From: an uncultured bacterium
Lineage (GTDB): Bacteria; Fidelibacterota; Marinisomatia; Marinisomatales; AB-629-J13
Assembly (NCBI GenBank): GCA_964606925.1
Contig: CAZSIH010000002.1
Span: 1-58,207, forward strand
Direction of reading: 5' to 3'
Length of the DNA: 58,207 bases
Both the position numbers and the translations under genes were made by a program. The notes beneath the pieces were generated by a model. It ran no database searches, was not told the DNA's origin, and was given only the letters and a program-made list of their open reading frames with translations. Positions 5,806 to 41,826 of this stretch are shown here, one piece after another. Position 1 is the stretch's first letter. Each line of letters begins with the position of its first letter.

Positions 5806-7887
5806 TTATTGAATTCCCAGACTGGTTAAAAATGCATCCATTGTAGGTTCCCTTCCTAAAAATTCCTGAACCAGTAATTTAGGATGAACTGTGCCTCCCG
5901 GTTCAAAAATTATTTTACGAAATCGTCTTCCCGTTTCCGGATCGAGAATCCCTTTTTCCTTGAAGACCGAATACATATCCTGGGCATAAACTTTAGACCA
6001 TAAATATCCATAATAAGCCGCTTCGTAACCCACCAGATGTCCAAATGACGACTGCATGTGGGTTCCATCAAGATAGGGATATAAAGTCAATTCATCCTGG
6101 AGTAATTCCGCCATGTCTGTTGTATTAAATTCACCGAATGGGTCGAACCCGTCATGGAGAGTAAAATCATACACACCGTAAAATATTTGTTGGAGGGTGT
6201 TTAATCCGGAATTCACATTTTTTGCGGCAATCATTTTATTTAACAATCTATCGGGTATTACTGCTCCTGTTTTATAATGACGGGCAAATAATTTTAATAC
6301 CTCTTTTTCCCAAACCCAATTCTCAAGAATCTGGGATGGCGCTTCCACAAAATCCTGTAAAACAGCAGTTCCGGAATAAAAATATAAGGGAGAAACGGTG
6401 AGAATCCCGTGAAGAAGATGCCCGAATTCATGAAAATATGTTTCCACATCATCATGGGGTAATAGGGACGGTTTTCCTTTCTGTGGAGGAGGAAAATTGC
6501 ATACCAGCGCCATAACAGGAATTTGATATTCATTGTCCAATAATTTACCCATGGAAACGCTGAAAGCCGCTGCGTGAGAATATTTATCTTCCCGGGGAAA
6601 CAAATCCAAATAGAAACGACCCAAAACCGTAGTGTCTTGTTCATCATAAACTTCATACATCGTGACATCTTCATGCCATACAGATGGATTTTTAATACGA
6701 TAAAACCCAATTCCAAATAACCGATTACAAATGTCAAATAAACCATTTATGACCTGGTTTAATTCAAAATATTCACTGATTTTTTTACTGTCCAACCGAT
6801 ATTGTTTCAGTTTCAAAAGATGTTCATATCGATCTGATTCCCATGATTCAATGGTGGTTTCATACTTCCCGGTTTTTTGAGATTTTATTTTCAACAATTT
6901 TTCATAATCATCCAATGCTTTAGGCATGACCAACTCATGAAGCGTTCTCTCAAATTCCCAAACTCTGTCTGCACTTTCCGACATGAGTATTTCTGTTCCA
7001 TAATCAGCAAAAGAAGGGTAATCCAATAATTCAGCGATTTGATTTCTGAGCAGGATGAGGGAATCCAATACCTGAAGATTTTTATCCGCTGCACGATTCC
7101 AGTACAAAAAGCGCAGGGCTTTTCTTGCACTGTCAGATTCTACATATTTCATAAATGGATTATAACTCGGGTAAGACAGGTCAATACCAAATTTACCATC
7201 ATCTTTTTTTCGATTTTCAGTGTAATCCTTCGAAAGTCCATTTAAATGGTGTTCCTTTAGAAAAAGCGTATCTTTGGATTCGGATATATTTTTTTCAAAT
7301 TTTAATCCTAAAGAAGTCAATTGATCCAAAATAATTTTAACACGAATTCTCACTCTTTTTCCCTGCCCAAAGCCATTGCGATTGAAATCCCGGAGCGTTT
7401 CTACCATAAATTTTTTCTCCAAACCCTTAAGCGCTTTTCCATTGGCTCTCTGTGAGAAAATTTCAATTGCATTATATAGTTTTTCATCAACGGATATTGA
7501 ATTGAGAAATTCCTCTATTTTCTGACTTGCTTCCAGTCCTGCCTCCCTTATGTCTTTATCCGGATGAGTAAATGCAAGCAAACCAACTGGACTCCATACA
7601 TTTTCTATAACATTTCCTAAATCGTCCAATGGAAGCAGTGTGTTTTTAAATGTTTTTTGAGATGGTCCAATTTTGTAAATATTTTTTAATAGTCTATTTG
7701 CCTTATAAATGACATGGTCAGTTGCTTCCAGAATATGATCTGCAGTAATTGAAGAAAAATCAATAGATTCTTCCCTGGATTTTAACAAAGGGTTTTTATT
7801 TTTTTCAGAGCAACCGGAGAAGATCAATACAATAATGGAAAAAATAAAGTACTTTACGAGTATCTGGTTTGAGAATTGTTTAAACAT
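5806..7887 (-). CDS. M3 family oligopeptidase (thimet oligopeptidase/Dcp-like), probable lipoprotein
   Basis: It carries the HEFGHLLH (HExxH) motif in an M3-like context. I moved the start to ATG 7885-7887 (MFKQFSNQILVKYFIFSIIVLIFSGC, a lipobox-like signal) because the track ORF start at 7968 runs into tRNA-Gly. Confidence 0.85.
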   Translation of the reverse strand: MFKQFSNQILVKYFIFSIIVLIFSGCSEKNKNPLLKSREESIDFSSITADHILEATDHVIYKANRLLKNIYKIGPSQKTFKNTLLPLDDLGNVIENVWSPVGLLAFTHPDKDIREAGLEASQKIEEFLNSISVDEKLYNAIEIFSQRANGKALKGLEKKFMVETLRDFNRNGFGQGKRVRIRVKIILDQLTSLGLKFEKNISESKDTLFLKEHHLNGLSKDYTENRKKDDGKFGIDLSYPSYNPFMKYVESDSARKALRFLYWNRAADKNLQVLDSLILLRNQIAELLDYPSFADYGTEILMSESADRVWEFERTLHELVMPKALDDYEKLLKIKSQKTGKYETTIESWESDRYEHLLKLKQYRLDSKKISEYFELNQVINGLFDICNRLFGIGFYRIKNPSVWHEDVTMYEVYDEQDTTVLGRFYLDLFPREDKYSHAAAFSVSMGKLLDNEYQIPVMALVCNFPPPQKGKPSLLPHDDVETYFHEFGHLLHGILTVSPLYFYSGTAVLQDFVEAPSQILENWVWEKEVLKLFARHYKTGAVIPDRLLNKMIAAKNVNSGLNTLQQIFYGVYDFTLHDGFDPFGEFNTTDMAELLQDELTLYPYLDGTHMQSSFGHLVGYEAAYYGYLWSKVYAQDMYSVFKEKGILDPETGRRFRKIIFEPGGTVHPKLLVQEFLGREPTMDAFLTSLGIQ

Positions 7888-7926
7888 CAAAATAAATAAA
7901 GAAAAAATGCGCCGGTCAGGGTATTG

Positions 7927-7999
<73 letters not shown>

Positions 8000-8037: not shown

Positions 8038-8484
8038 TCAATCTGATTTAGGAAAAATTTCAAACAAAGTTGAAGGTCTGTTCATAATAAACAATCCCAT
8101 TAAAAAGAGAATTGAATTTTCCAATAATTTTTGTGTACCTACCAATTCACCTTCTTTCAATCCGCATCCGCATTCAATGTTATATCCCCGTAAAATTGCG
8201 GAACTTATTGCAATGATAAAAACAACCAACAGACCCATGGACATCAATGCCGCCCCATCTACCATACAACCGATTACAAGCCCCAATCCGATCAAGAGTT
8301 CCAACCATGGAAGAATGATTGCCATTGTATTTTCCATTCCGAATGGAATGATATGATAATTATCTATACTTCGAGCAAAAGATTGAGGTTCAGTTATTTT
8401 ATCAATGCCTGCATAAAGAAATAAAACTCCTAAAATTAACCGAATTACTAAAATGAATAATGAATTTTGTATTATAGATTTCAT
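8038..8484 (-). CDS. MauE/DoxX family integral membrane protein with a CGCG motif
   Basis: It contains LILGVLFLYAGIDKITEPQSFARSIDNYHIIP, four hydrophobic segments and NIECGCGL. I moved the start to ATG 8482-8484, which overlaps the rhodanese TGA as ATGA. Confidence 0.7.
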   Translation of the reverse strand: MKSIIQNSLFILVIRLILGVLFLYAGIDKITEPQSFARSIDNYHIIPFGMENTMAIILPWLELLIGLGLVIGCMVDGAALMSMGLLVVFIIAISSAILRGYNIECGCGLKEGELVGTQKLLENSILFLMGLFIMNRPSTLFEIFPKSD

Positions 8485-8972
8485 TTTTCTATTTCGAATC
8501 CTTTTTCTTCCCATTCCGACCAACCGCCCATATAAATATAAATCAATGTAAATCCGCTTTCCTGCAAGCCGTAGGCAAGGTCTTCACTCTTGGCACATTC
8601 TCCGCCACTACAATAGGCAACAATTGGGGCTGTTTTTTCCTGTTTTTCTTCAATTGTAAAGGTGAGATCCATGAAATCTTCAGAAGACAATGCTCCGGGA
8701 ATATGTCCTTCTTCATATTCTTCTATTTCACGGGAATCCACAAAAAGAACTCCTGCATTAAAAAGTGATAACGCCTGCTCCGTTGAAATGGATTTTACAT
8801 CGCTAGTTTTCGATTGATTGGATAACAAATTTTCATCGGTTGCCTGTTCAATCTGCGGAGCCCGAAATGGAATTGATCTTGAATCGGTTCTGATCCCATT
8901 AGCTGAAATACCAACCAAAAGGGACAAGACGAGATAGATTCCCCCTTGCTTTAAAGGGGAATCAAAGCTCAT
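8481..8972 (-). CDS. Single-domain rhodanese-like sulfurtransferase with an N-terminal membrane anchor or signal
   Basis: It contains VLFVDSREIEEYEEGHIPGAL and the active-site loop VAYCSGGECAKS. The N-terminus GGIYLVLSLLVGISANG is hydrophobic. Its start overlaps the upstream gene's stop as ATGA. Confidence 0.8.
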   Translation of the reverse strand: MSFDSPLKQGGIYLVLSLLVGISANGIRTDSRSIPFRAPQIEQATDENLLSNQSKTSDVKSISTEQALSLFNAGVLFVDSREIEEYEEGHIPGALSSEDFMDLTFTIEEKQEKTAPIVAYCSGGECAKSEDLAYGLQESGFTLIYIYMGGWSEWEEKGFEIEK

Positions 8973-10126
8973 TTTTTATATAATGGTGAAAATGATTTGT
9001 CACGCAATTCTTTATCTTTACTTAAACATTGATCAACGAAAGCCAGCATTTCCGGATCATCCTTTATTTTTCGACTCATAGGAATCAAATCAAATTGAAT
9101 CTTGTTTGAAGCATGTGCAATATTGGTATTTGCTTCCTCTAATTGTTTTTCCAATGTTACAATTTGACGATAAACTGCTTGATTGTCAGCATACAAATCT
9201 TTTAGAGGTGTATCAGGATCTTTCTTTTGGTAATTTGCCAGTCTTCGTTCAGAATTTTCACTGAGTTTATTGTAATAACTAATATCCACAAAAGGTGAGT
9301 CAATATGAGAAATATCCAATTCCAGAAATGCCATATATTTTCCCTGTTTTCCGGGAATAAAAAGCGGTGGACGATCTTTTGGTTGAGGTTGTCCCTTCCG
9401 TGTTCTGGATATATCCCTGCTCATCACAATGTAATCCGCATCCCTGAACTCATCCTGTAAATCCTGTTTTTCTTTTCGATCAGCATTAACCAGCATAACA
9501 ACTAAATCAGCTTTTTTACGAATTTCTTTAATGTACTTTTTCCCCGATTCGTAAATATCTTCCATTTCAATAGTTTTGTTCCCATCCAGCAGAAGACTCG
9601 TGAGTCCTATGACACCAATCCTGAATGGTTCACGGTCAACAATCACATACGGTTCAGCAAATAATTTTCCCGTAGATTTAACACGAAGATTTGCGGAAAT
9701 AAATGGAATATCCGTTGCATCCATTATGCTCCGCAAAAAATCAACTCCTCCGGCAAGTTCATATCCTCCGATATTGATGGCAGCACATCCAATTTCCTCA
9801 TATCCCTTGATGATATTTCTCGCTTTATATTCATCGGCAGACCGAGTGTTATCCAATACCAGTGACGATGTGAACAACACCTCTCCCGCATCCAGAATGA
9901 TCGGATCTTTCCCTTTCTCCCTTATCTCATCCACATATGTTAATTTTCTTGACAGACCGCCAAGAGGATTTTTCTTTCAGCCACAGGGGTCGAGTTGAGC
10001 CCTGACATTAGCAGATAAGACAAATGACAAGGTTCCCGTAGGGTTTCGTTTTTCCTCACAGGAGAAAAGTAACCCTGAAACCACAAGAGTAAAGATCAAT
10101 CCGCTCTTTTTTTTCAATTGATTCAT
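8969..10126 (-). CDS. Putative selenocysteine-containing (Cys-Gly-Sec) lipoprotein on a degenerate 5'-nucleotidase/metallophosphoesterase-like fold; TGA 9977-9979 is read as Sec
   Basis: The frame of track ORF 8969..9934 stays open upstream to ATG 10124-10126 apart from one TGA at codon 50. The upstream part reads MNQLKKKSGLIFTLVVSGLLFSC (lipobox) ...LSANVRAQLDPCG-U-KKNPLGGLSRKL. A SECIS-like hairpin follows the TGA. The body (IILDAGEVLF, AINIGGYELAGG, IPFISANLRVKSTGKLF, RIGVIGLTS) aligns by eye with the UshA-type N-domain, but the metal ligands are replaced. Confidence 0.7.
9942..9979 (-). promoter_or_regulatory. Bacterial SECIS-like recoding hairpin immediately 3' of the in-frame UGA
   Basis: The RNA is UGA AAG AAA AAU CCU CUU GGC GGU CUG UCA AGA AAA UU. 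The upper stem UCUUGGC/GUCAAGA has 7 bp including one G-U, and the apical loop is GGUCU. The lower stem AAU/AUU lies across a CC/AA internal loop. With U of UGA as +1, the loop G and U fall at +23 and +24. Confidence 0.6.
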
Positions 10127-10151: not shown

Positions 10152-10475
10152 TTATCCACCGCTTAATTTAGCGTTATATCCATTTTCAATTAAAAATCGA
10201 TGTACTTGTTCCCTCACATTTCCCTGTATCATGATTTCACCTTTTTTCTCTGTTCCGCCCACATGGCATAAAGATCTTAATATTTTACCTAATTTTTTTA
10301 ATTCCATTTTCGGACCGTTAAACCCCCGCACTATGGTTGCTTTTTTCCCTCCCGGTTTGTTTTCCAGCCAAATCCTCAAATCCTGATTGGAATTAGACAC
10401 TTTTTTTTTCTTTTCAGTTCCCTCTAACGACATATTGCGGTCAGTGGAATAAACCAGTTTTGAATTCTCACTCAT
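10152..10475 (-). CDS. yciH: Translation initiation factor SUI1/eIF1 family protein (YciH)
   Basis: 107 aa. It contains GGKKATIVRGF...LKKLGKILRSLCHVGGTEKKGEIMIQGNVREQV, which is typical of SUI1/YciH. Confidence 0.85.
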   Translation of the reverse strand: MSENSKLVYSTDRNMSLEGTEKKKKVSNSNQDLRIWLENKPGGKKATIVRGFNGPKMELKKLGKILRSLCHVGGTEKKGEIMIQGNVREQVHRFLIENGYNAKLSGG

Positions 10476-10516
10476 GTATCATTCGATAATTTTCTACTTT
10501 CATTAAAAGTAATCAG

Positions 10517-10589
10517 TGGAGCCGGACGGGATCGAACCGACGACCTCCTGAATGCCATTCAGGCGCTCTCCCAACTGAGCTACGGCCCC
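10517..10589 (-). tRNA. tRNA-Ala (anticodon GGC)
   Basis: The reverse complement is GGGGCCGTAGCTCAGTTGGGAGAGCGCCTGAATGGCATTCAGGAGGTCGTCGGTTCGATCCCGTCCGGCTCCA. The G3-U70 Ala identity pair is present and the anticodon loop is ATGGCAT. There is one U-U mismatch in the T-stem. Confidence 0.85.
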
Positions 10590-10657: not shown

Positions 10658-11128
10658 TTAGTGTTTTCTCGTCTCTATCAACCGATATTTTCTGGCGAAT
10701 ACTTTTGATCGAACTATCCAAGCTGTATCAAATCCCTGCTTGACTATACTTATTTTCATTTTTTCAGCTTCATTCCGGGTTACAAAATTTCCTATTCTTA
10801 CCTTGTAAACTGGTGCATCAAATGCAATGTAAACATCCTCATTCCATTTTTCTTCCAATACAGTTTTTATACTGTCAGCAGAACGGGAAAAACGGGTAGC
10901 GAACACCTGGACCCTGAATCCGTCCAATTCATGGAGAGACGTATCCAATAATGCAGAGTCAGCAATGGCTGGTTTATGTTTCATGAAAGAATGGTTAATT
11001 AGAGGCCATTTCGGTGGAATATCCTTCAGTTGGGACGGATCAAATTTTTCCTTTGATTGACAAATTATTGTGGATACAACCAATAACATCATGCTCCATT
11101 TCAATAAAATTGGTTCTGATCGTATCAT
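10658..11128 (-). CDS. SPOR (peptidoglycan-binding) domain protein
   Basis: The C-terminus FRVQVFATRFSRSADSIK...YKVRIGNFVTRNEAEKMKISIVKQGFDTAWIV has the SPOR pattern. I moved the start to ATG 11126-11128 (MIRSEPILLKWSMMLLV), which overlaps the batE stop as ATGA. Confidence 0.7.
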   Translation of the reverse strand: MIRSEPILLKWSMMLLVVSTIICQSKEKFDPSQLKDIPPKWPLINHSFMKHKPAIADSALLDTSLHELDGFRVQVFATRFSRSADSIKTVLEEKWNEDVYIAFDAPVYKVRIGNFVTRNEAEKMKISIVKQGFDTAWIVRSKVFARKYRLIETRKH

Positions 11129-11871
11129 AAAAACCTCAACTGATTGGTCTTGATCCACCCTTTTTTTCCGTCCAGTAATGATATTTCTATCCAATCTCCC
11201 TGGTCATGGTCAATGGAAACCTTTATCCCTTCGTGAATTTTGAATAAAACTGCATCACTTCGGACAAAAGGACCCGAAAAGGCTTTCACTTCATATTCAG
11301 TGATAATTCCTTCATTTCTTTCTGATATATCCCAATATTTATCCAAAAGAATACCATGTAGAATTAACGCTGAGAATAAAAATATTTGCAGGGGAATCCA
11401 ACTGATATCAATCCGGAGAACTTTGATCACAAGGTAATATATCGAGGATAACAGAATAAATAAAGCTGAAATGGATATAAATTGGGAAAAGGTCAATGAT
11501 GATTTTATAAATCGGTACCATTTGAGAATGAAAAGGGTTTCGGGGACATGAATCCTATCTTTTACGTGAGTATTTGCAAGGGCGAGATTGAATTTTGTAT
11601 CTCCATCCAGAGGATTTAATTCCATAGCTTTTTCATAAGCCCAAATTGAATGACCATAGCTTCCTGACCTGAAGTATGAATTTCCCAAATTATAATAAAG
11701 ATCTTCATGAAAAAATCCCTGATTTAAAATCGTTTCGAACATCACAACTGCTTTTTCATTCCTCCCTCCCTCCAAATAAGAACTGCCCTGCATAAATAAT
11801 GAATCTGCATTTTGGCTCCATCCTAAGGATATGACTAAAAAAATGATAAATTTATTTGCCATATTTATCAA
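11125..11871 (-). CDS. batE: BatE-like protein (TPR repeats plus C-terminal SH3b-like domain)
   Basis: It has TPR-like repeats (YYNLGNSYFRSGSYGHSIWAYEKAMELNP), transmembrane segments and a C-terminal GDWIEISLLDGKKGWIKTNQL. It lies at the end of the bat operon. Confidence 0.65.
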   Translation of the reverse strand: MINMANKFIIFLVISLGWSQNADSLFMQGSSYLEGGRNEKAVVMFETILNQGFFHEDLYYNLGNSYFRSGSYGHSIWAYEKAMELNPLDGDTKFNLALANTHVKDRIHVPETLFILKWYRFIKSSLTFSQFISISALFILLSSIYYLVIKVLRIDISWIPLQIFLFSALILHGILLDKYWDISERNEGIITEYEVKAFSGPFVRSDAVLFKIHEGIKVSIDHDQGDWIEISLLDGKKGWIKTNQLRFL

Positions 11872-13597
11872 TCTTCTTTAAAATAGAAATTGCGGAAGGG
11901 ATAATATCACTTTTAATTTCTGCCGTTTGGGGAGAAAAACGACCTGCATCGCATCGGTTTAATATTTGAATCAATTCGTTCATTTCTTGTTCGGGGATAT
12001 GATTTTTCAGGACATTCTGAACCATGGTTGGATCCAAATTATCAGTTTGGAGATAGAATTTTTCTTTTAAATAAGTATATAAAACGGAAGCACCCATTTC
12101 AAATTCATTCTTTCCGCTTTCTTGAAGGGAAATTATCGCTTTTTTAAGTGCTTTTTTTGATTTGCGTACATCCATACCCGCAAATTGTTTTCTCTGGTAC
12201 TTGTTTGCTATACCGGGAAAAATAAAACCGCAAACAGCTAAAGAATAAAATAAAACTGCCACAACAGGTAAACGATTATTCTGATTCCATTCGGGCACTG
12301 TTGTTCTGTGATATCGAATGTCCTTCCCCAGCAGTGCTACTTCCTGTTTTGTCAAACCCTCCGGAATTCCCATGGGAACAGACCCGGGAGAAACTGAAAT
12401 TTGAATGGAGTGTGCTTTCGCTCTTTTCCACGCAGCGGTCTTTGGATCAAAGAAAGGAAGTTCAACCCTGGGTAGATTGAATCTCCCGGTTTGACGGGGA
12501 ATCACCACATATTCCCATCGTAATGTGCCGGTGATCTCATCCCGAAATGAATCTTTATTTATTTCACTTACCGGCGGAAATACCTCCAAAGATTTTGGAA
12601 AGGATAATTCCGGTAAACTGAATAAGGAAAGATTTCCCGTTCCTTTCACTTCGATAAAAAAAGTGACCGCTTCATTCGCTTTTACCTTTTGAACATCTAC
12701 GGATGTCTTCACTGTATAATTCCCCACTGCTCCTGTAAAATCAGAAGGTTTTCCATCAGGGTATGGAAGTACATTAATTATTTTTGTTTCAGATTTTAAT
12801 GCTTTTCGAATCGTCTGTCTGGAAGAAAAAGAATCAAATACATCAAAAAAGGGATCTCGTCTTCGTGATTTCTTCTTTTCCACATAAACCTTGGAATTAA
12901 TCGTATAAGTATCCAACGGAATTTTTCCCGTTTTTGTCGGGAATAATGCTACTGTATACAATTTTGCTTTTTTATATCGTACTCCGTCATAGGTTACTTC
13001 CCGCATATTAATCTGTCTGGGAGAATACAAACTTTCAGTCCAAAACCCGACAAATTCAGGTAAATCAACACTCTCTATGGATAAATCCGTACGGGTGAAC
13101 AATTGATAGGTAACTGTAATCTGTTCTCCTAAATATGCTGTATTCTTATCCAAATCAACTCGAATAAAATGAGATTGGGCATCTCCGGTTTTTGAACTGA
13201 CAGGATTTTTGGAAACATGTATTTTTATCGGGTTTGTTTTGAGTTTAGATTTTCCTGAGGTTACTGTCAATGAAGGAACAACTAACGATCCTGTCTTCTT
13301 TGGCGATAGTGTCCATGACAATCCACGTGTTGATGTCATTTTTCCATTTACCCAAGAAATATTGGTTTGCTGGCTGGGACCATTTACTACTATAAAATTT
13401 TTCCTTAATGGCGATATATCTACCTGCGGAGAATCATTGCCGTCAATAGCTTCAATCTTTAATTCAAATACATCATCTAACGTTAATTTATTCCGGTCAA
13501 TCGTTGCATGTACCGTTAGCCCAAAAGCAAGGTGGACACCAAACACTAATGGTAGATATTTAAAAATATATTTCAAAGAATAAGTCAATGGTTTCAT
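11852..13597 (-). CDS. batD: BatD-like oxygen-tolerance protein
   Basis: 581 aa, with a signal peptide, a large extracytoplasmic region, a late transmembrane segment (VVAVLFYSLAVCGFIFPGI) and a cytoplasmic tail. Its position between batC and batE fits the call. Confidence 0.65.
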   Translation of the reverse strand: MKPLTYSLKYIFKYLPLVFGVHLAFGLTVHATIDRNKLTLDDVFELKIEAIDGNDSPQVDISPLRKNFIVVNGPSQQTNISWVNGKMTSTRGLSWTLSPKKTGSLVVPSLTVTSGKSKLKTNPIKIHVSKNPVSSKTGDAQSHFIRVDLDKNTAYLGEQITVTYQLFTRTDLSIESVDLPEFVGFWTESLYSPRQINMREVTYDGVRYKKAKLYTVALFPTKTGKIPLDTYTINSKVYVEKKKSRRRDPFFDVFDSFSSRQTIRKALKSETKIINVLPYPDGKPSDFTGAVGNYTVKTSVDVQKVKANEAVTFFIEVKGTGNLSLFSLPELSFPKSLEVFPPVSEINKDSFRDEITGTLRWEYVVIPRQTGRFNLPRVELPFFDPKTAAWKRAKAHSIQISVSPGSVPMGIPEGLTKQEVALLGKDIRYHRTTVPEWNQNNRLPVVAVLFYSLAVCGFIFPGIANKYQRKQFAGMDVRKSKKALKKAIISLQESGKNEFEMGASVLYTYLKEKFYLQTDNLDPTMVQNVLKNHIPEQEMNELIQILNRCDAGRFSPQTAEIKSDIIPSAISILKKIDKYGK

Positions 13598-13603
13598 AAA
13601 TGG

Positions 13604-14437
13604 TTACCAATCCTTTTCCATTTTTCTGGATTTCACTCTGTTCATTTGACGTCTTTTATTGATTTTTTCCTTGTCTTTCAACGCATTGAGAATGGCTTGC
13701 GCATTCATTTTATTCTTTAATGAATCTATTCTTTCTTCATTCTTTTCAGCAGGGTTTAGCTTAGACTGATTTTGTCCCTTGGGTTGGTTATTTTCATCTT
13801 CATTTCTGGAATTATTAGTGTTTTCGTCTCTTTTTTGTTCCTTATTTTTTTCTGTTTTTTCCTCTTTTTCAGATTGATTATTCTGGGATTCCTCATTTTT
13901 CTGTTTTTCTGAATGGTTTTCTTTTTTTTCTTTTTTCTGCTGATCATTTGATTGATTGTCCTGTTGATTTTTCTCGTCTTTGTCCTGAGAATCATCCCCT
14001 GATTGATTTTTTTTTGGGGATTGTTCCTGAATCATTCTTTGAACTAATTCATAATTCCACTTTGCTTCCGAATCTTCTTGGTTTAATTCAATTGATTTTT
14101 TGAAATGAGCAAGACTTTCTTCCAGTTTCTGTGAATGAAAATATAAATTCCCCAAATTATAATGAGCTTTGGATTGGAGTGATACATCCTCCGTTGATAA
14201 TGCTTGTTTAAAGGCTTCCTCCGCTGTTTGAATATCCTCAGTTTGAAAAGAAACCGCACCCAAACCAAATATTGCTTCTTTATTTTCAATTTGCTTTTTT
14301 AATACCGTTTCATAAAAATCAATTGCTTTTTCGTATTCCCCATTTTGAAATAATCGGACGCCTTTATCTTCAACAGCCATCACCTGTTCATTAAAAAGAA
14401 AACCAAGAAAAACGATAAATATCTTACTGATTTTCAA
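13604..14437 (-). CDS. batC: BatC-like TPR protein with a K/E/N/Q-rich low-complexity tail
   Basis: It has N-terminal TPR repeats (AHYNLGNLYFHSQKLEESLAHFKKSIELN) followed by about 120 aa of low complexity. Confidence 0.6.
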   Translation of the reverse strand: MKISKIFIVFLGFLFNEQVMAVEDKGVRLFQNGEYEKAIDFYETVLKKQIENKEAIFGLGAVSFQTEDIQTAEEAFKQALSTEDVSLQSKAHYNLGNLYFHSQKLEESLAHFKKSIELNQEDSEAKWNYELVQRMIQEQSPKKNQSGDDSQDKDEKNQQDNQSNDQQKKEKKENHSEKQKNEESQNNQSEKEEKTEKNKEQKRDENTNNSRNEDENNQPKGQNQSKLNPAEKNEERIDSLKNKMNAQAILNALKDKEKINKRRQMNRVKSRKMEKDW

Positions 14438-14439
14438 TA

Positions 14440-15453
14440 TTATTTCTCCAAATCACTTGAGGTTTTTCTTTTTGTGGGAATAAAAAATGCAGCTAAAAAC
14501 ATGGATAATGCCATGACTCCAAATAGTTGAAATTGATCCTCATATTCAGAAAATTCATGAGTGCTGATGGTTTTTTTCTCCATCTGATTTATAGCTTGTG
14601 TGATCGTCTTATAATGCGCTGCACGATTATCAAATCGAACGTACACTCCATCACCTGCACGGGCAAGTTCCTGAAGAATCCCTTCATTCAATGTGGAAGT
14701 AATTAATTTTCCCTGACGATCTCTCTTGTACGAGGTATTCCCTGTTTTTTTATCAAATACGGGAATAAGTGATCCTGAAACGGATCCAACTCCCACTGTG
14801 TGGATGATAATCCCGGTTTGAGCTGCTTTTTCAGCAATTCCGATAGCTTCCCCCTCATGATCTTCCCCATCTGTGATCAAAATTAATACTTTGAATTTTT
14901 CACTTTCATCTGAGAAAGCTGAAAGTCCCGAATTAAGAGCAGAACTGATAACGGTTCCCTGGGTGGGAATCATTTCCGTATCTATTTGGTCTAAAAATAA
15001 ATTAGCTGCTTCGTAATCAGAAGTAAGGGGTAAATAAAGGTGGCTGGCTCCTGCAAAAACGATGATTCCAACCCGGTCTCCTTTGAGCTGCCGAATGATT
15101 TGGGATATCTCAAATTTTGCTTTTTCAAGGCGATTCGGTTTTACATCTTCTGCATTCATACTGACGGAAACATCCACTGCAAATATTAAATCAACTCCTT
15201 TTCGCTCCACCGGTTTCACTTGGGTACCGATCTGAATTCCGGAAGCAGAGATTATTAAAAACAGGAGTCCGATGACACGAAATCGGTTTTTCCAATTCGT
15301 TTTTTTAAAGTCCACATATTGGAATAAATGATCTTTTAAATGGGTATGCTGGATGTGCAGTAAATTTGAAATAGAATTCCTTTTTTTACTAAAAACCAGA
15401 ATAATTCCCAATATAATCAATAAGAAAAAAACAATGGGGTAACGAATGTCCAT
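14440..15453 (-). CDS. batB: BatB-like von Willebrand factor A domain membrane protein
   Basis: DLIFAVDVSVSMNAED is a VWA MIDAS motif (DxSxS), and ILITDGEDHEG is also present. There are N- and C-terminal transmembrane segments. Confidence 0.8.
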   Translation of the reverse strand: MDIRYPIVFFLLIILGIILVFSKKRNSISNLLHIQHTHLKDHLFQYVDFKKTNWKNRFRVIGLLFLIISASGIQIGTQVKPVERKGVDLIFAVDVSVSMNAEDVKPNRLEKAKFEISQIIRQLKGDRVGIIVFAGASHLYLPLTSDYEAANLFLDQIDTEMIPTQGTVISSALNSGLSAFSDESEKFKVLILITDGEDHEGEAIGIAEKAAQTGIIIHTVGVGSVSGSLIPVFDKKTGNTSYKRDRQGKLITSTLNEGILQELARAGDGVYVRFDNRAAHYKTITQAINQMEKKTISTHEFSEYEDQFQLFGVMALSMFLAAFFIPTKRKTSSDLEK

Positions 15454-16421
15454 TAAAATGACCTTTTAAACATGAATCTATCAAGGATTTCATGGAATAA
15501 TCCTATGAGCAATGCCGGGATAAGAAAAAATCCATATAATTCTCTGTACTTTGTATATTCCTTCACTTCAATTTCTGTCCTTTCCAACTGGTCAATTTCT
15601 GAATAAATATCTCTCAGGGATTCCTCATCTGTCGCACGGAAATATTGCCCCTTCGTTCGGATGGCAATTTCTTTAAGGGTTTCTTCATCAATTTCATTTT
15701 TAACGTATCCTTTATTTGATATAAACGTATTGGATTGATTTGTTCCGGCTCCGATCGTATAAATTTTTATATCAAATTCAGCGGCAATGTCCGCCGCTGT
15801 TAATGGATCAAGTTCGCCGGCGTTATTACTGCCGTCCGACAGCAGTACCATGACCTTGCTTTTTGCCGTACTTCCCCGAAGTCTGTTCACTGCATTAACA
15901 ATTGCCATGCCGATTGCAGTCCCGTCAAATTTTCTTTCTGCAACAGTCACTTCACTTAATAATTTCCCTATGACTTCCGTATCAACTGTAAGGGGACATT
16001 GAATGAATGTTTCCCCTGCAAAAACCAGTAATGCTATTCTGTCACCGGAACGACTTTCGATAAATTGCGCTGCTGTTTTCTTGACCGCTTCCAACCTGTT
16101 CGGTTTAAAATCTTCTGCCAGCATACTGCTGGAAATATCCAAGACCATCACAATATCAACCACATCCACTTTGGATTTCTCCAATGTGTCCACTTTTTGA
16201 GGTCTGGCAAGACCAAGAATGATCAGGAATAATAGAAGAGAACCTAAGACTTTTAAAATCAAATGTCTGTATTTTCCGCTGGTGATGAAAGGGTCAATTA
16301 ATAATTCTTTTGAAGAAATTTGTACGACACTTTCTTTCTTCTGACCATATTTTCGATACCAGAATTCTAATATCGGAATGAGAACTAAGGTGCATAAATA
16401 CCAGGGATTTGCAAATTTCAT
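15453..16421 (-). CDS. batA: BatA-like von Willebrand factor A domain membrane protein
   Basis: It starts MKFANPWYL and carries DIVMVLDISSSMLAEDFKPNRLEA (MIDAS) and VLLSDGSNNAG. Confidence 0.8.
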   Translation of the reverse strand: MKFANPWYLCTLVLIPILEFWYRKYGQKKESVVQISSKELLIDPFITSGKYRHLILKVLGSLLLFLIILGLARPQKVDTLEKSKVDVVDIVMVLDISSSMLAEDFKPNRLEAVKKTAAQFIESRSGDRIALLVFAGETFIQCPLTVDTEVIGKLLSEVTVAERKFDGTAIGMAIVNAVNRLRGSTAKSKVMVLLSDGSNNAGELDPLTAADIAAEFDIKIYTIGAGTNQSNTFISNKGYVKNEIDEETLKEIAIRTKGQYFRATDEESLRDIYSEIDQLERTEIEVKEYTKYRELYGFFLIPALLIGLFHEILDRFMFKRSF

Positions 16422-41787: not shown

Positions 41788-41826
41788 CTGGATTCCTGCT
41801 CTCCGCTTCGCTCCGGCTGGAATGAC
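41788..41826 (-). repeat. REP/MITE-like short element, copy B (inverted orientation)
   Basis: The reverse complement reads GTCATTCCAGCCGGAGCGAAGCGGAGAGCAGGAATCCAG. Confidence 0.5.

Follow-up and report, generated by a model that had tools for sequence, protein, structure and literature searches.

A Marinimicrobia operon encoding a UshA-like selenocysteine lipoprotein, a two-cysteine rhodanese and a MauE-family membrane protein: a candidate envelope redox relay

Organization of the locus

The window analysed here is the whole 58,207-nt stretch of contig CAZSIH010000002.1, from an uncultured bacterium of the phylum Marinimicrobia (also known as Neomarinimicrobiota or Fidelibacterota), and it contains three minus-strand open reading frames (ORFs) arranged head to tail (Table 1). 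The first encodes a selenocysteine (Sec)-containing putative lipoprotein related to UshA-type 5'-nucleotidases, the second a secreted protein with a single rhodanese-fold domain, and the third a four-helix membrane protein of the MauE/DoxX family. Closely spaced redox pairs are present in all three and are nearly invariant among their relatives, with CGU in 80 of 80 selenoproteins, YCx4C in 70 of 71 rhodaneses and CGC in 67 of 67 MauE proteins, and we propose below that the three proteins may form a relay in the cell envelope. The genes are tightly packed: the ATG of the rhodanese gene overlaps the stop codon of the selenoprotein gene within the tetranucleotide ATGA (8972-8969), and the ATG of the MauE gene overlaps the rhodanese stop codon in the same manner (8484-8481). 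Both couplings, together with the limits of the three genes, had been put forward in an earlier reading of the sequence alone (the original prediction), and re-reading of the ORFs shows that they are correct.

Table 1. Coordinates of the operon, its redox motifs and its flanking genes in the window.
Feature	Coordinates	Strand	Details
UshA-like selenocysteine lipoprotein gene	8969..10126	-	385 aa, read through one in-frame TGA
Signal peptide and lipobox L-F-S-C (L20-Cys23)	10058..10126	-	Cys23 is the predicted lipidated residue
Cys48-Gly49-Sec50 codons	9977..9985	-	TGA at 9979-9977, residue 50
SECIS-type hairpin	9947..9965	-	19 nt, 6-7 bp stem, loop GGUCU
Secreted single-domain rhodanese-fold gene	8481..8972	-	163 aa; PF00581, 61 bits
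Rhodanese active-site loop C121-S-G-G-E-C126 (CX4C)	8595..8612	-	from the translation
MauE/DoxX-family four-helix membrane protein gene	8038..8484	-	148 aa; PF07291, 102 bits
MauE C105-G-C107	8164..8172	-	TM3-TM4 loop
SUI1/YciH-like gene	10152..10475	-	25 nt upstream of the selenoprotein gene; PF01253, 64 bits
tRNA-Gly gene	7926-7999		39 nt past the MauE gene
tRNA-Ala gene	10516-10589		upstream side, beyond SUI1

A selenocysteine codon and its downstream hairpin

Searching a genome collection returned 151 relatives, and the analysis was confined to the 80 best loci; all are from Marinimicrobia, at 37-81% protein identity, and every one of these 80 has TGA at the codon corresponding to Sec50. 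In the window the residue lies in the context LDPCG-U50-KKNPLGGLSRK, with LDPCGU being residues 45-50. The coding sequence is conserved on both sides of the TGA, including the N-terminal 49 codons, and the alignment spans the site. A hairpin of the selenocysteine insertion sequence (SECIS) type follows, with a stem that begins 11 nt past the UGA and lies inside the codons for L-G-G-L-S-R. Among 78 distinct sequences GGCGGTCTG is invariant, synonymous codon positions included, as is the GGUCU loop, and stem pair 24-36 occurs as GC (41), AU (21), UA (9), GU (6) and UG (1) and is never unpaired. The covariation score of the hairpin was reached by none of 500 shuffles, and sliding the register reduces pairing to 25-51%. 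When folded as a single sequence the hairpin is no stabler than shuffled sequences (z = 0.81), and Rfam gives no match to it at the gathering threshold; the case for a SECIS element therefore rests on conservation and covariation, and not on single-sequence stability or Rfam. The GGUCU loop resembles the apical loop of the Escherichia coli fdhF SECIS.

Because the TGA is kept in all 80 loci and is followed by a covarying hairpin, we conclude that it is a true Sec codon. In other lineages the position is occupied by Cys, as in EPCGC, DSCGC, DNCGC and DPCSC. There is no tRNA-Sec among the four tRNAs of the window, and a scan of the window for other TGA codons that might be read through ahead of a hairpin revealed no credible further selenoprotein; one candidate, at 41823, was discarded because it does not correspond to a genuine ORF.

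In public gene calls the Sec codon is treated in two ways, and both treatments are found among P0004, P0027-P0040, P0248 and P0260-P0268. In some the gene is truncated at the TGA, has an internal GTG or ATG start and is named a 2',3'-cyclic-nucleotide 2'-phosphodiesterase, and in others the TGA is read as Trp. The database homologues that are listed as 'full-length' show Trp at the Sec position, and these genes were probably called with a code in which TGA specifies Trp. Both variants conceal the Sec residue from annotation-based surveys.

A UshA-like domain with a degenerate metal site

The selenoprotein begins with a predicted signal peptide and a putative lipobox, in which L20-F-S-C23 is a near match to the pattern [LVI][ASTVI][GAS]C, and in the alignment most full-length homologues have Cys at the position equivalent to Cys23. 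Its best NCBIfam match is NF041198, the 'UshA-like (seleno)protein', a model named for the PCGU motif. The window selenoprotein carries the PCGU/C motif that this family calls for and aligns with profile positions 2-384 of 519, with a score of 206 bits that is below the curated cutoff of 275. The remaining segment of the profile (~385-519) is a C-terminal Cytochrome_C554-type multihaem (tetrahaem) domain with four CxxCH motifs, and the score falls short because the window selenoprotein is without this domain, having neither a CxxCH motif nor a Pfam cytochrome match. Relatives that pass the cutoff (P0331, P0347, P0360, P0386, P0377 and P0322) all carry the C-terminal Cytochrome_C554 multihaem domain, and cytochrome-bearing relatives score 309-567 bits against NF041198.

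The original prediction regarded the system as undescribed, and for the Sec protein this has to be withdrawn, as it is already catalogued in NF041198 and in the literature. It has been known since 2008 as the 'COG0737, UshA-like, CxU' family, to which 76 Sec sequences of the Global Ocean Sampling selenoproteome belong and which ranks among the twenty most abundant selenoprotein families of those data (PMC2398784). The family is listed again in reviews of 2022 and 2026 (PMC9312934, PMC13188914), and none of the three publications gives it a function.

The proposed homology to the N-terminal domain of UshA-type 5'-nucleotidases is well founded, with agreement between NCBIfam, HMMER and Foldseek. 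HMMER searches against PDB sequences match the selenoprotein to this domain at E values of 1e-17 to 1e-16. For structural comparison we used an AlphaFold2 (AF2) model of the 67%-identical orthologue P0004, in which the TGA position is Trp (predicted local distance difference test, pLDDT, of 87.7); Foldseek matches this model to 1oie, 1hp1, 2ush, 3ivd and CD73, with E. coli UshA among the matches, at E values of ~1e-19 with query TM-scores of 0.5-0.6. About half of the alignments to 5'-nucleotidases end at ~280-300 columns and the others reach ~370-405. Past residue ~283 the model consists of two long helices and one strand, and from this secondary structure and the 385-aa length the window protein appears to lack the C-terminal nucleotide-binding domain of the 5'-nucleotidases. 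Its architecture is that of a degenerate 5'-nucleotidase N-domain with a helical C-terminal region. Many orthologues (P0004, P0027-P0040; L031 5151-6185) end in a His-rich tail, such as DHSGHNH, HNHDHS or HxGHNH, which may be a metal-binding appendage; the tail is absent from the window selenoprotein and its closest relatives.

Profile alignments to 3ivd and 1ush, together with the canonical relative P0288, locate the metal-ligand motifs of the fold. Motif I (D-x-H) aligns to N40-V-R42 in the segment SANVRAQ, with HTGDLHGHLDPF of P0288 set against SANVRAQLDPC of the window, and most orthologues have S-V-H here. The original prediction had equated the NDxHG region with LDPCGU, an assignment that is wrong by six residues. 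The 'L-D/E-P' that follows motif I is an ordinary element of the family found in active enzymes too, and C48-G-U50 forms an insertion or loop directly after L-D-P, with the GG(L)xR helix start of the family coming next. Motif II (G-D) is present in the window as DAGE82, so that the proposed change of GD to GE is right for this protein, and does not extend to most homologues, which keep GD (as DAGD in most orthologues, with D, N or E across the wider family). The replacement of GNHEF by GGYEL is borne out by the alignment, motif III (G-N-H-E) being IG-G121-Y122-E in the window and G-K-Y-E in most orthologues. The His of motif IV is N214, an Asn that is invariant in the orthologues, and the His of motif V is probably the Arg of M-S-R-D, a placement taken from the strand order of the model, and is variable elsewhere. 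Residues at motif positions I-V vary across the family. With the ligand changes D to N40, H to R42, N/H to G121/Y122 and His(IV) to N214, the dinuclear metal site is lost and the phosphatase is dead; the earlier view that the metal-ligand motifs have degenerated stands for motifs I, III and IV, with motif I moved to its new position. Judging from the order of the sequence only, the Cys-Sec pair would be at the old cleft, on the loop following the first strand of the active site.

The rhodanese and MauE proteins

The rhodanese has a short hydrophobic N-terminus and a linker of ~35 residues, followed by a single PF00581 domain. Its active-site loop, AYCSGGECAKS, contains C121, matched in alignments with 6mxv, 3nhv and 2k0z to their catalytic Cys, and C126, a second Cys at +5; the loop is acidic and two residues longer than that of 6mxv. 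Among 71 orthologues 70 share the YCx4C motif (YCxxxxC[GA]), mostly in the acidic form CSDDDC (CSDDDCGS), and the cationic six-residue sulfurtransferase loop C-R-x-G-x-[RT] is not present in the window protein (C-S-G-G-E-C-A-K) or in most orthologues. The rhodanese-like protein BH2092 of Bacillus halodurans (PDB 3nhv / 3o3w) has the same CX4C spacing (YCWGPAC) and could be a structural template for the two-Cys loop. The N-terminus has a 13-residue hydrophobic stretch followed by ISA/NG and may be at least as similar to a cleavable signal peptide as to a membrane anchor, and so, of the original description of a membrane-anchored rhodanese with the loop YCSGGECAKS, the loop is as described and the anchoring is uncertain.

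The third protein had been described as a MauE/DoxX-type polytopic membrane protein with an ECGCG motif, in which the cysteines are C105 and C107, and both the PF07291 match (102 bits against a gathering cutoff of 27) and the four helices of its AF2 model (residues 8-31, 51-71, 75-99 and 112-134) agree with this. The CGC is found in all 67 MauE orthologues, and the loop that holds it, between transmembrane helices (TM) 3 and 4 (residues 100-111), is unstructured and of low confidence in the model. A Foldseek search of the model against the PDB gave nothing significant (best E value 0.46), and a homologue search with MauE returned only close Marinimicrobia relatives and yielded no domain-fusion information.

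A 2026 preprint (10.64898/2026.03.05.709764) reports that MauE replaces DsbB as a generator of disulfides through its CGC loop. Each Cys of the TM3-TM4 CGC is required, TOPCONS puts the loop on the periplasmic side, and docking places ubiquinone beside it. The same study describes a conserved Lys in TM1 and a conserved Glu in TM2 near the quinone site and a Phe(-Gly) after the CXC, and it notes that the usual partner of MauE is a thioredoxin-fold protein, either separate or fused to it. In the clade of the window protein K29, at the end of TM1, and E62, in TM2, are invariant, and these are candidate counterparts of the quinone-site Lys and Glu.

Conservation of the gene neighbourhood and the wider family

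Partner genes were counted in the 67 loci whose sequence continues for 1050 nt or more past the selenoprotein gene, and in 62 of these the rhodanese gene lies directly downstream and is followed by the MauE gene, in the same order as in the window; five loci with shorter downstream DNA also show both partners. The selenoproteins of trio loci are 38-81% identical to the window protein, and overlapping or near-overlapping start and stop codons are common. The expectation of a conserved and tightly coupled envelope module is supported by 62 of the 67 Marinimicrobia loci. Co-occurrence of the three genes outside this genome extends across Marinimicrobia and stops at the phylum, with L081-L088 lacking the arrangement; the trio is conserved within Marinimicrobia only.

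A SUI1/YciH-like gene is present upstream, on the same strand, in 69 of the 80 loci, with a gap of mostly 0-35 nt, and other flanking genes are not conserved across loci. SUI1 and the trio form a conserved four-gene cluster, for which plain synteny and a link to UGA recoding or translation are both conceivable. In one sub-clade the gap between SUI1 and the selenoprotein gene is 1.4 kb and is filled by an inserted gene; we considered this as a fourth component of the module and rejected it, the product being by eye an acyltransferase-like membrane protein. In the window the operon is flanked by the tRNA-Gly gene on one side and by SUI1 and the tRNA-Ala gene on the other. The nearby genes encode an M3 peptidase, a SPOR-domain protein and the products of a BatA-E operon. 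The longest-ORF call for the peptidase (5806-7968, minus strand, TTG start at 7968) overruns the tRNA-Gly gene, and its true start must be further downstream. The BatA-BatB-TPR-BatD-TPR/SH3 'aerotolerance' operon (11125-16421, minus strand) is located just upstream of the SPOR-domain gene, and since it is common to only 3-6 of the 80 related loci it lies outside the module. A scan for promoters and terminators around the operon gave counts no higher than the shuffled expectation, and no terminator was found.

Outside Marinimicrobia, L081 (from the cable bacterium Ca. Electronema) and L082 (from a metagenome contig related to it) carry another cytochrome gene downstream of the cytochrome-fused one, and a third locus has no cytochrome neighbour. 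The proteins encoded after the fused gene in L081 (7669-9018) and L082 (7662-9026) are ~450 aa long, match cytochrome c and Dehyd-heme_bind, and may be dedicated electron-transfer partners. In the 1207-aa P0294 a pair of UshA-like domains with CxC (GPCEC in one, RACGC in the other) is joined to a DsbA-like thioredoxin domain and, at the C-terminus, to a cytochrome c554-like domain. Both motif cysteines are lost in P0259, P0272, P0301 and P0282 (for example LVPHNVRRNPYGG), and P0334 and P0339 have CxxC instead (ESCPTC and EPCETC); because some members have lost both cysteines and others have CxxC, the redox motif is evolutionarily plastic.

A proposed thiol/selenol-disulfide relay

We propose that the operon encodes a Marinimicrobia-specific thiol/selenol-disulfide exchange chain of the envelope, a reading to which we assign a probability of roughly 0.5. 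In this chain MauE would act through the CGC of its TM3-TM4 loop as a DsbB-like, quinone-coupled disulfide generator, and the secreted rhodanese-fold protein would use its acidic CX4C loop as a dithiol/disulfide shuttle, filling the place of the thioredoxin-fold protein (DsbA or MauD) that is usually beside MauE. The Cys48-Gly-Sec50 of the lipoprotein would cycle between the selenol/thiol and selenenylsulfide states, and electrons would pass from a periplasmic substrate at the Sec site, possibly a small molecule such as a reduced sulfur compound, to the rhodanese, to MauE and finally to quinone. Outside Marinimicrobia the CG(C/U) domain would instead be wired to the tetrahaem cytochrome c with which it is fused, and in Marinimicrobia this haem wire would have been swapped for a thiol wire to quinone.

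A single position at which Sec and Cys interchange usually marks a catalytic redox residue, and because the CG(C/U) domain shows such interchange and is elsewhere fused to tetrahaem cytochromes, we argue that it is probably a redox catalytic unit rather than a structural disulfide. The cytochrome fusions, with the DsbA-like domain of P0294, indicate that the domain has been coupled repeatedly to electron carriers. Two further considerations lead us to a relay: the window MauE shares the architecture of the experimentally DsbB-like MauE, and there is a precedent in the periplasmic rhodanese PspE of E. coli, which, by the account of Chng et al. 2012 as cited in PMC5403849, can drive disulfide formation without DsbA. 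A more specific version, which we offer tentatively and regard as doubtful, is that the trio is a quinone-linked periplasmic oxidoreductase of a kind not recognised before, in which a dead 5'-nucleotidase scaffold would use its Cys-Gly-Sec for the oxidation (or reduction) of a small substrate containing sulfur or selenium and the CX4C rhodanese would shuttle to MauE, with tetrahaem wiring in other phyla.

Several observations weigh against the relay. The linkage of the three genes is one of operon adjacency in a single phylum and could in part reflect inherited synteny. Partners are absent beside the cytochrome-fused relatives outside the phylum (L081-L083), and a metagenome scan gave five cytochrome-less loci with the Cys form (L084-L088), which have unrelated neighbours and neither rhodanese nor MauE. 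Within Marinimicrobia five loci have the selenoprotein gene without partners; three of these five are second copies in trio-bearing genomes (L016/L079, L021/L080 and L040/L059), and in L079 (4393-5001) and L080 (4227-4895) the solo copy comes directly after a gene for a secreted TlpA/AhpC-like thioredoxin-fold protein with a WCKPC motif, which suggests that these paralogues use a different redox partner. The direction of electron flow is affected as well, as the demonstrated activity of MauE favours oxidation and the TlpA-like genes beside the solo copies hint at reduction. TlpA-like proteins are usually reductants. The MauE preprint also mentions that MauE had previously been reported to be a possible reductase (10.64898/2026.03.05.709764). 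The CGC of the window MauE is followed by Gly-Leu (CGCGL) and not by the Phe of other clades (CGC-F-K), and the CG(W/U) loop of the selenoprotein (residues 49-56) has a pLDDT below 50 in the P0004 model, giving its placement relative to the old cleft low confidence. The neighbouring genes (M3 peptidase, SPOR-domain protein and BatA-E) indicate no substrate.

The plainest of the alternatives is that the lipoprotein gene codes for a conventional, active 5'-nucleotidase or phosphodiesterase and is broken by a stop codon, either as a pseudogene or as two ORFs. Database calls that split the gene at the TGA and give it a phosphodiesterase name would favour this, and it is refuted by the conservation data, with the TGA in every locus, a covarying SECIS hairpin and 49 conserved codons ahead of it; the metal ligands and the C-terminal nucleotide-binding domain that such an enzyme would have are also missing. 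A rather different possibility is that the proteins traffic chalcogen, with C121 of the rhodanese passing a persulfide or perselenide to or from the Cys-Gly-Sec of a SoxB-like scaffold and MauE re-oxidising or gating the carriers. The rhodanese fold has a Cys at the canonical catalytic position, the window selenoprotein scores 31.6 bits, and its relatives as much as 101 bits, against the SoxB thiosulfohydrolase, and there are cytochrome-fused relatives in the sulfide-oxidising cable bacteria (Ca. Electronema), all of which suit such a role. We nonetheless consider it unlikely, as the loop (CSDDDC/CSGGEC) is acidic and two residues longer than the thiosulfate-binding cationic CRxGxR, the second Cys, which is invariant, suggests a carrier of disulfides and not of persulfides, genes of sulfur metabolism are missing from the vicinity, and the scaffold lacks the metal site on which hydrolysis by SoxB depends. 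The original prediction had allowed for either a thiol-disulfide relay or sulfur/selenium transfer; the relay is the better supported of the two, with MauE DsbB-like through its CGC, and transfer is disfavoured by the acidic, extended two-Cys loop.

The selenoprotein could also be no partner in a dedicated chain at all, with MauE and the CX4C rhodanese serving general oxidative folding in Marinimicrobia and the selenoprotein being a syntenic neighbour, like SUI1, or one client among others. The preprint presents MauE as a generalist replacement for DsbB (10.64898/2026.03.05.709764), SUI1 is equally conserved with no obvious envelope role, and the selenoprotein occurs alone in five loci and in other lineages. 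This explanation is distinctly unlikely in our estimation, because the tight and often overlapping layout persists to ~38% selenoprotein identity while other flanks change, and because it is specifically beside second copies in trio genomes that the partners are absent, which fits one shared relay; moreover, a rhodanese is not a known general Dsb partner. Improbable, finally, is a function in soft-metal handling, where the Cys/Sec residues, the acidic CX4C and MauE/DoxX would bind or transfer Cu, Zn, Ni or Hg, or where C48 and U50 would make a new redox metal site in the old cleft. The His-rich tail (HxGHNH) on many orthologues, the acidic residues around the rhodanese cysteines and a weak MauE score (27.8 bits, where the cutoff is 80) for HvfX, a 'Cu-binding RiPP maturation protein' of the DoxX type, would be in keeping with it, and haem fusions would suit a redox metal centre too. 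Against this, neither the window protein nor the relatives closest to it have the tail, there are too few conserved ligands, motif positions I-V vary across the family, and the CGC of MauE has a demonstrated disulfide-forming role.

Relationship to known systems

All three protein families are already known, and a literature search covering the trio, rhodanese with MauE, and Marinimicrobia selenoproteins found no description of the operon. What appears to be new with respect to the literature searched is the lipoprotein subfamily without the cytochrome, the operon that joins it across the phylum to a CX4C rhodanese and a DsbB-like MauE, and the nature of the full family members as cytochrome fusions with a degenerate metal site. 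Marinimicrobia are among the ocean's most abundant phyla, and the phosphatase remnant without metal, the cytochrome fusions, the link to MauE and the two-Cys rhodanese together turn a catalogue entry into a testable redox pathway. If the proposed relay is correct, the rhodanese would be the first MauE partner outside the thioredoxin fold, the range of bacterial disulfide relays would be wider, and the CX4C class of rhodaneses would have a biochemical role.

The window selenoprotein resembles the NF041198 family in its 5'-nucleotidase-like N-domain, the (D/E)PCG(U/C) followed by GGL(S/A)R, the Sec/Cys interchange and a helical region reaching profile position 384; full members differ in having the C-terminal tetrahaem domain, whereas the window protein is a predicted lipoprotein with rhodanese and MauE partners, which the full members lack. 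SoxB and UshA/CD73 share the N-terminal metallophosphatase fold and the elements L(D/E)P, GG(L)xR and (F/L)(I/L)SAN(L/I), but the window protein is without their dinuclear Mn/Zn site and C-terminal substrate-binding domain and has Cys-Gly-Sec instead.

SseA of Mycobacterium tuberculosis is a rhodanese-type protein. In the DoxX-SseA-SodA complex of that organism a DoxX-family membrane protein is likewise associated with SseA in thiol homeostasis (Nambi et al., summarised in PMC6201333), although the complex faces cytosolic mycothiol and includes a superoxide dismutase; it has no selenoprotein and is not reported to carry CGC or CX4C motifs. The catalogued selenoprotein TsoB (NF045694; PMC13188914), which is rhodanese/DsbD fusion-like with UxxxxU, is similar in coupling a membrane thiol-redox protein to a rhodanese domain whose two chalcogen residues are spaced four apart. 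It is one fused polypeptide with a DsbD-like (reductive) domain and U-x4-U, in contrast to the separate genes, C-x4-C and MauE of the window, and the window rhodanese scores 34.6 bits against NF045694, over the rhodanese part only, where the cutoff is 805.

The characterised MauE (10.64898/2026.03.05.709764) has the same four TM helices and CGC in a flexible TM3-TM4 loop, and differs in its thioredoxin-fold rather than rhodanese-fold CX4C neighbour and in the Phe, not Gly-Leu, after the CGC. PspE provides the precedent for a periplasmic rhodanese in disulfide formation; as described in the source that cites Chng et al. 2012 (PMC5403849), it acts through a single Cys and a sulfenic acid, together with DsbC, unlike the Cys-pair rhodanese of the window with a dedicated Cys-Sec lipoprotein as its proposed acceptor. 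As in the DsbB-DsbA system of E. coli, a quinone-linked membrane oxidase would hand disulfides to a periplasmic carrier, and the comparison suggests that the trio is a variant form of periplasmic disulfide relay, in which the carrier is not a thioredoxin and the chain ends in a selenoprotein.

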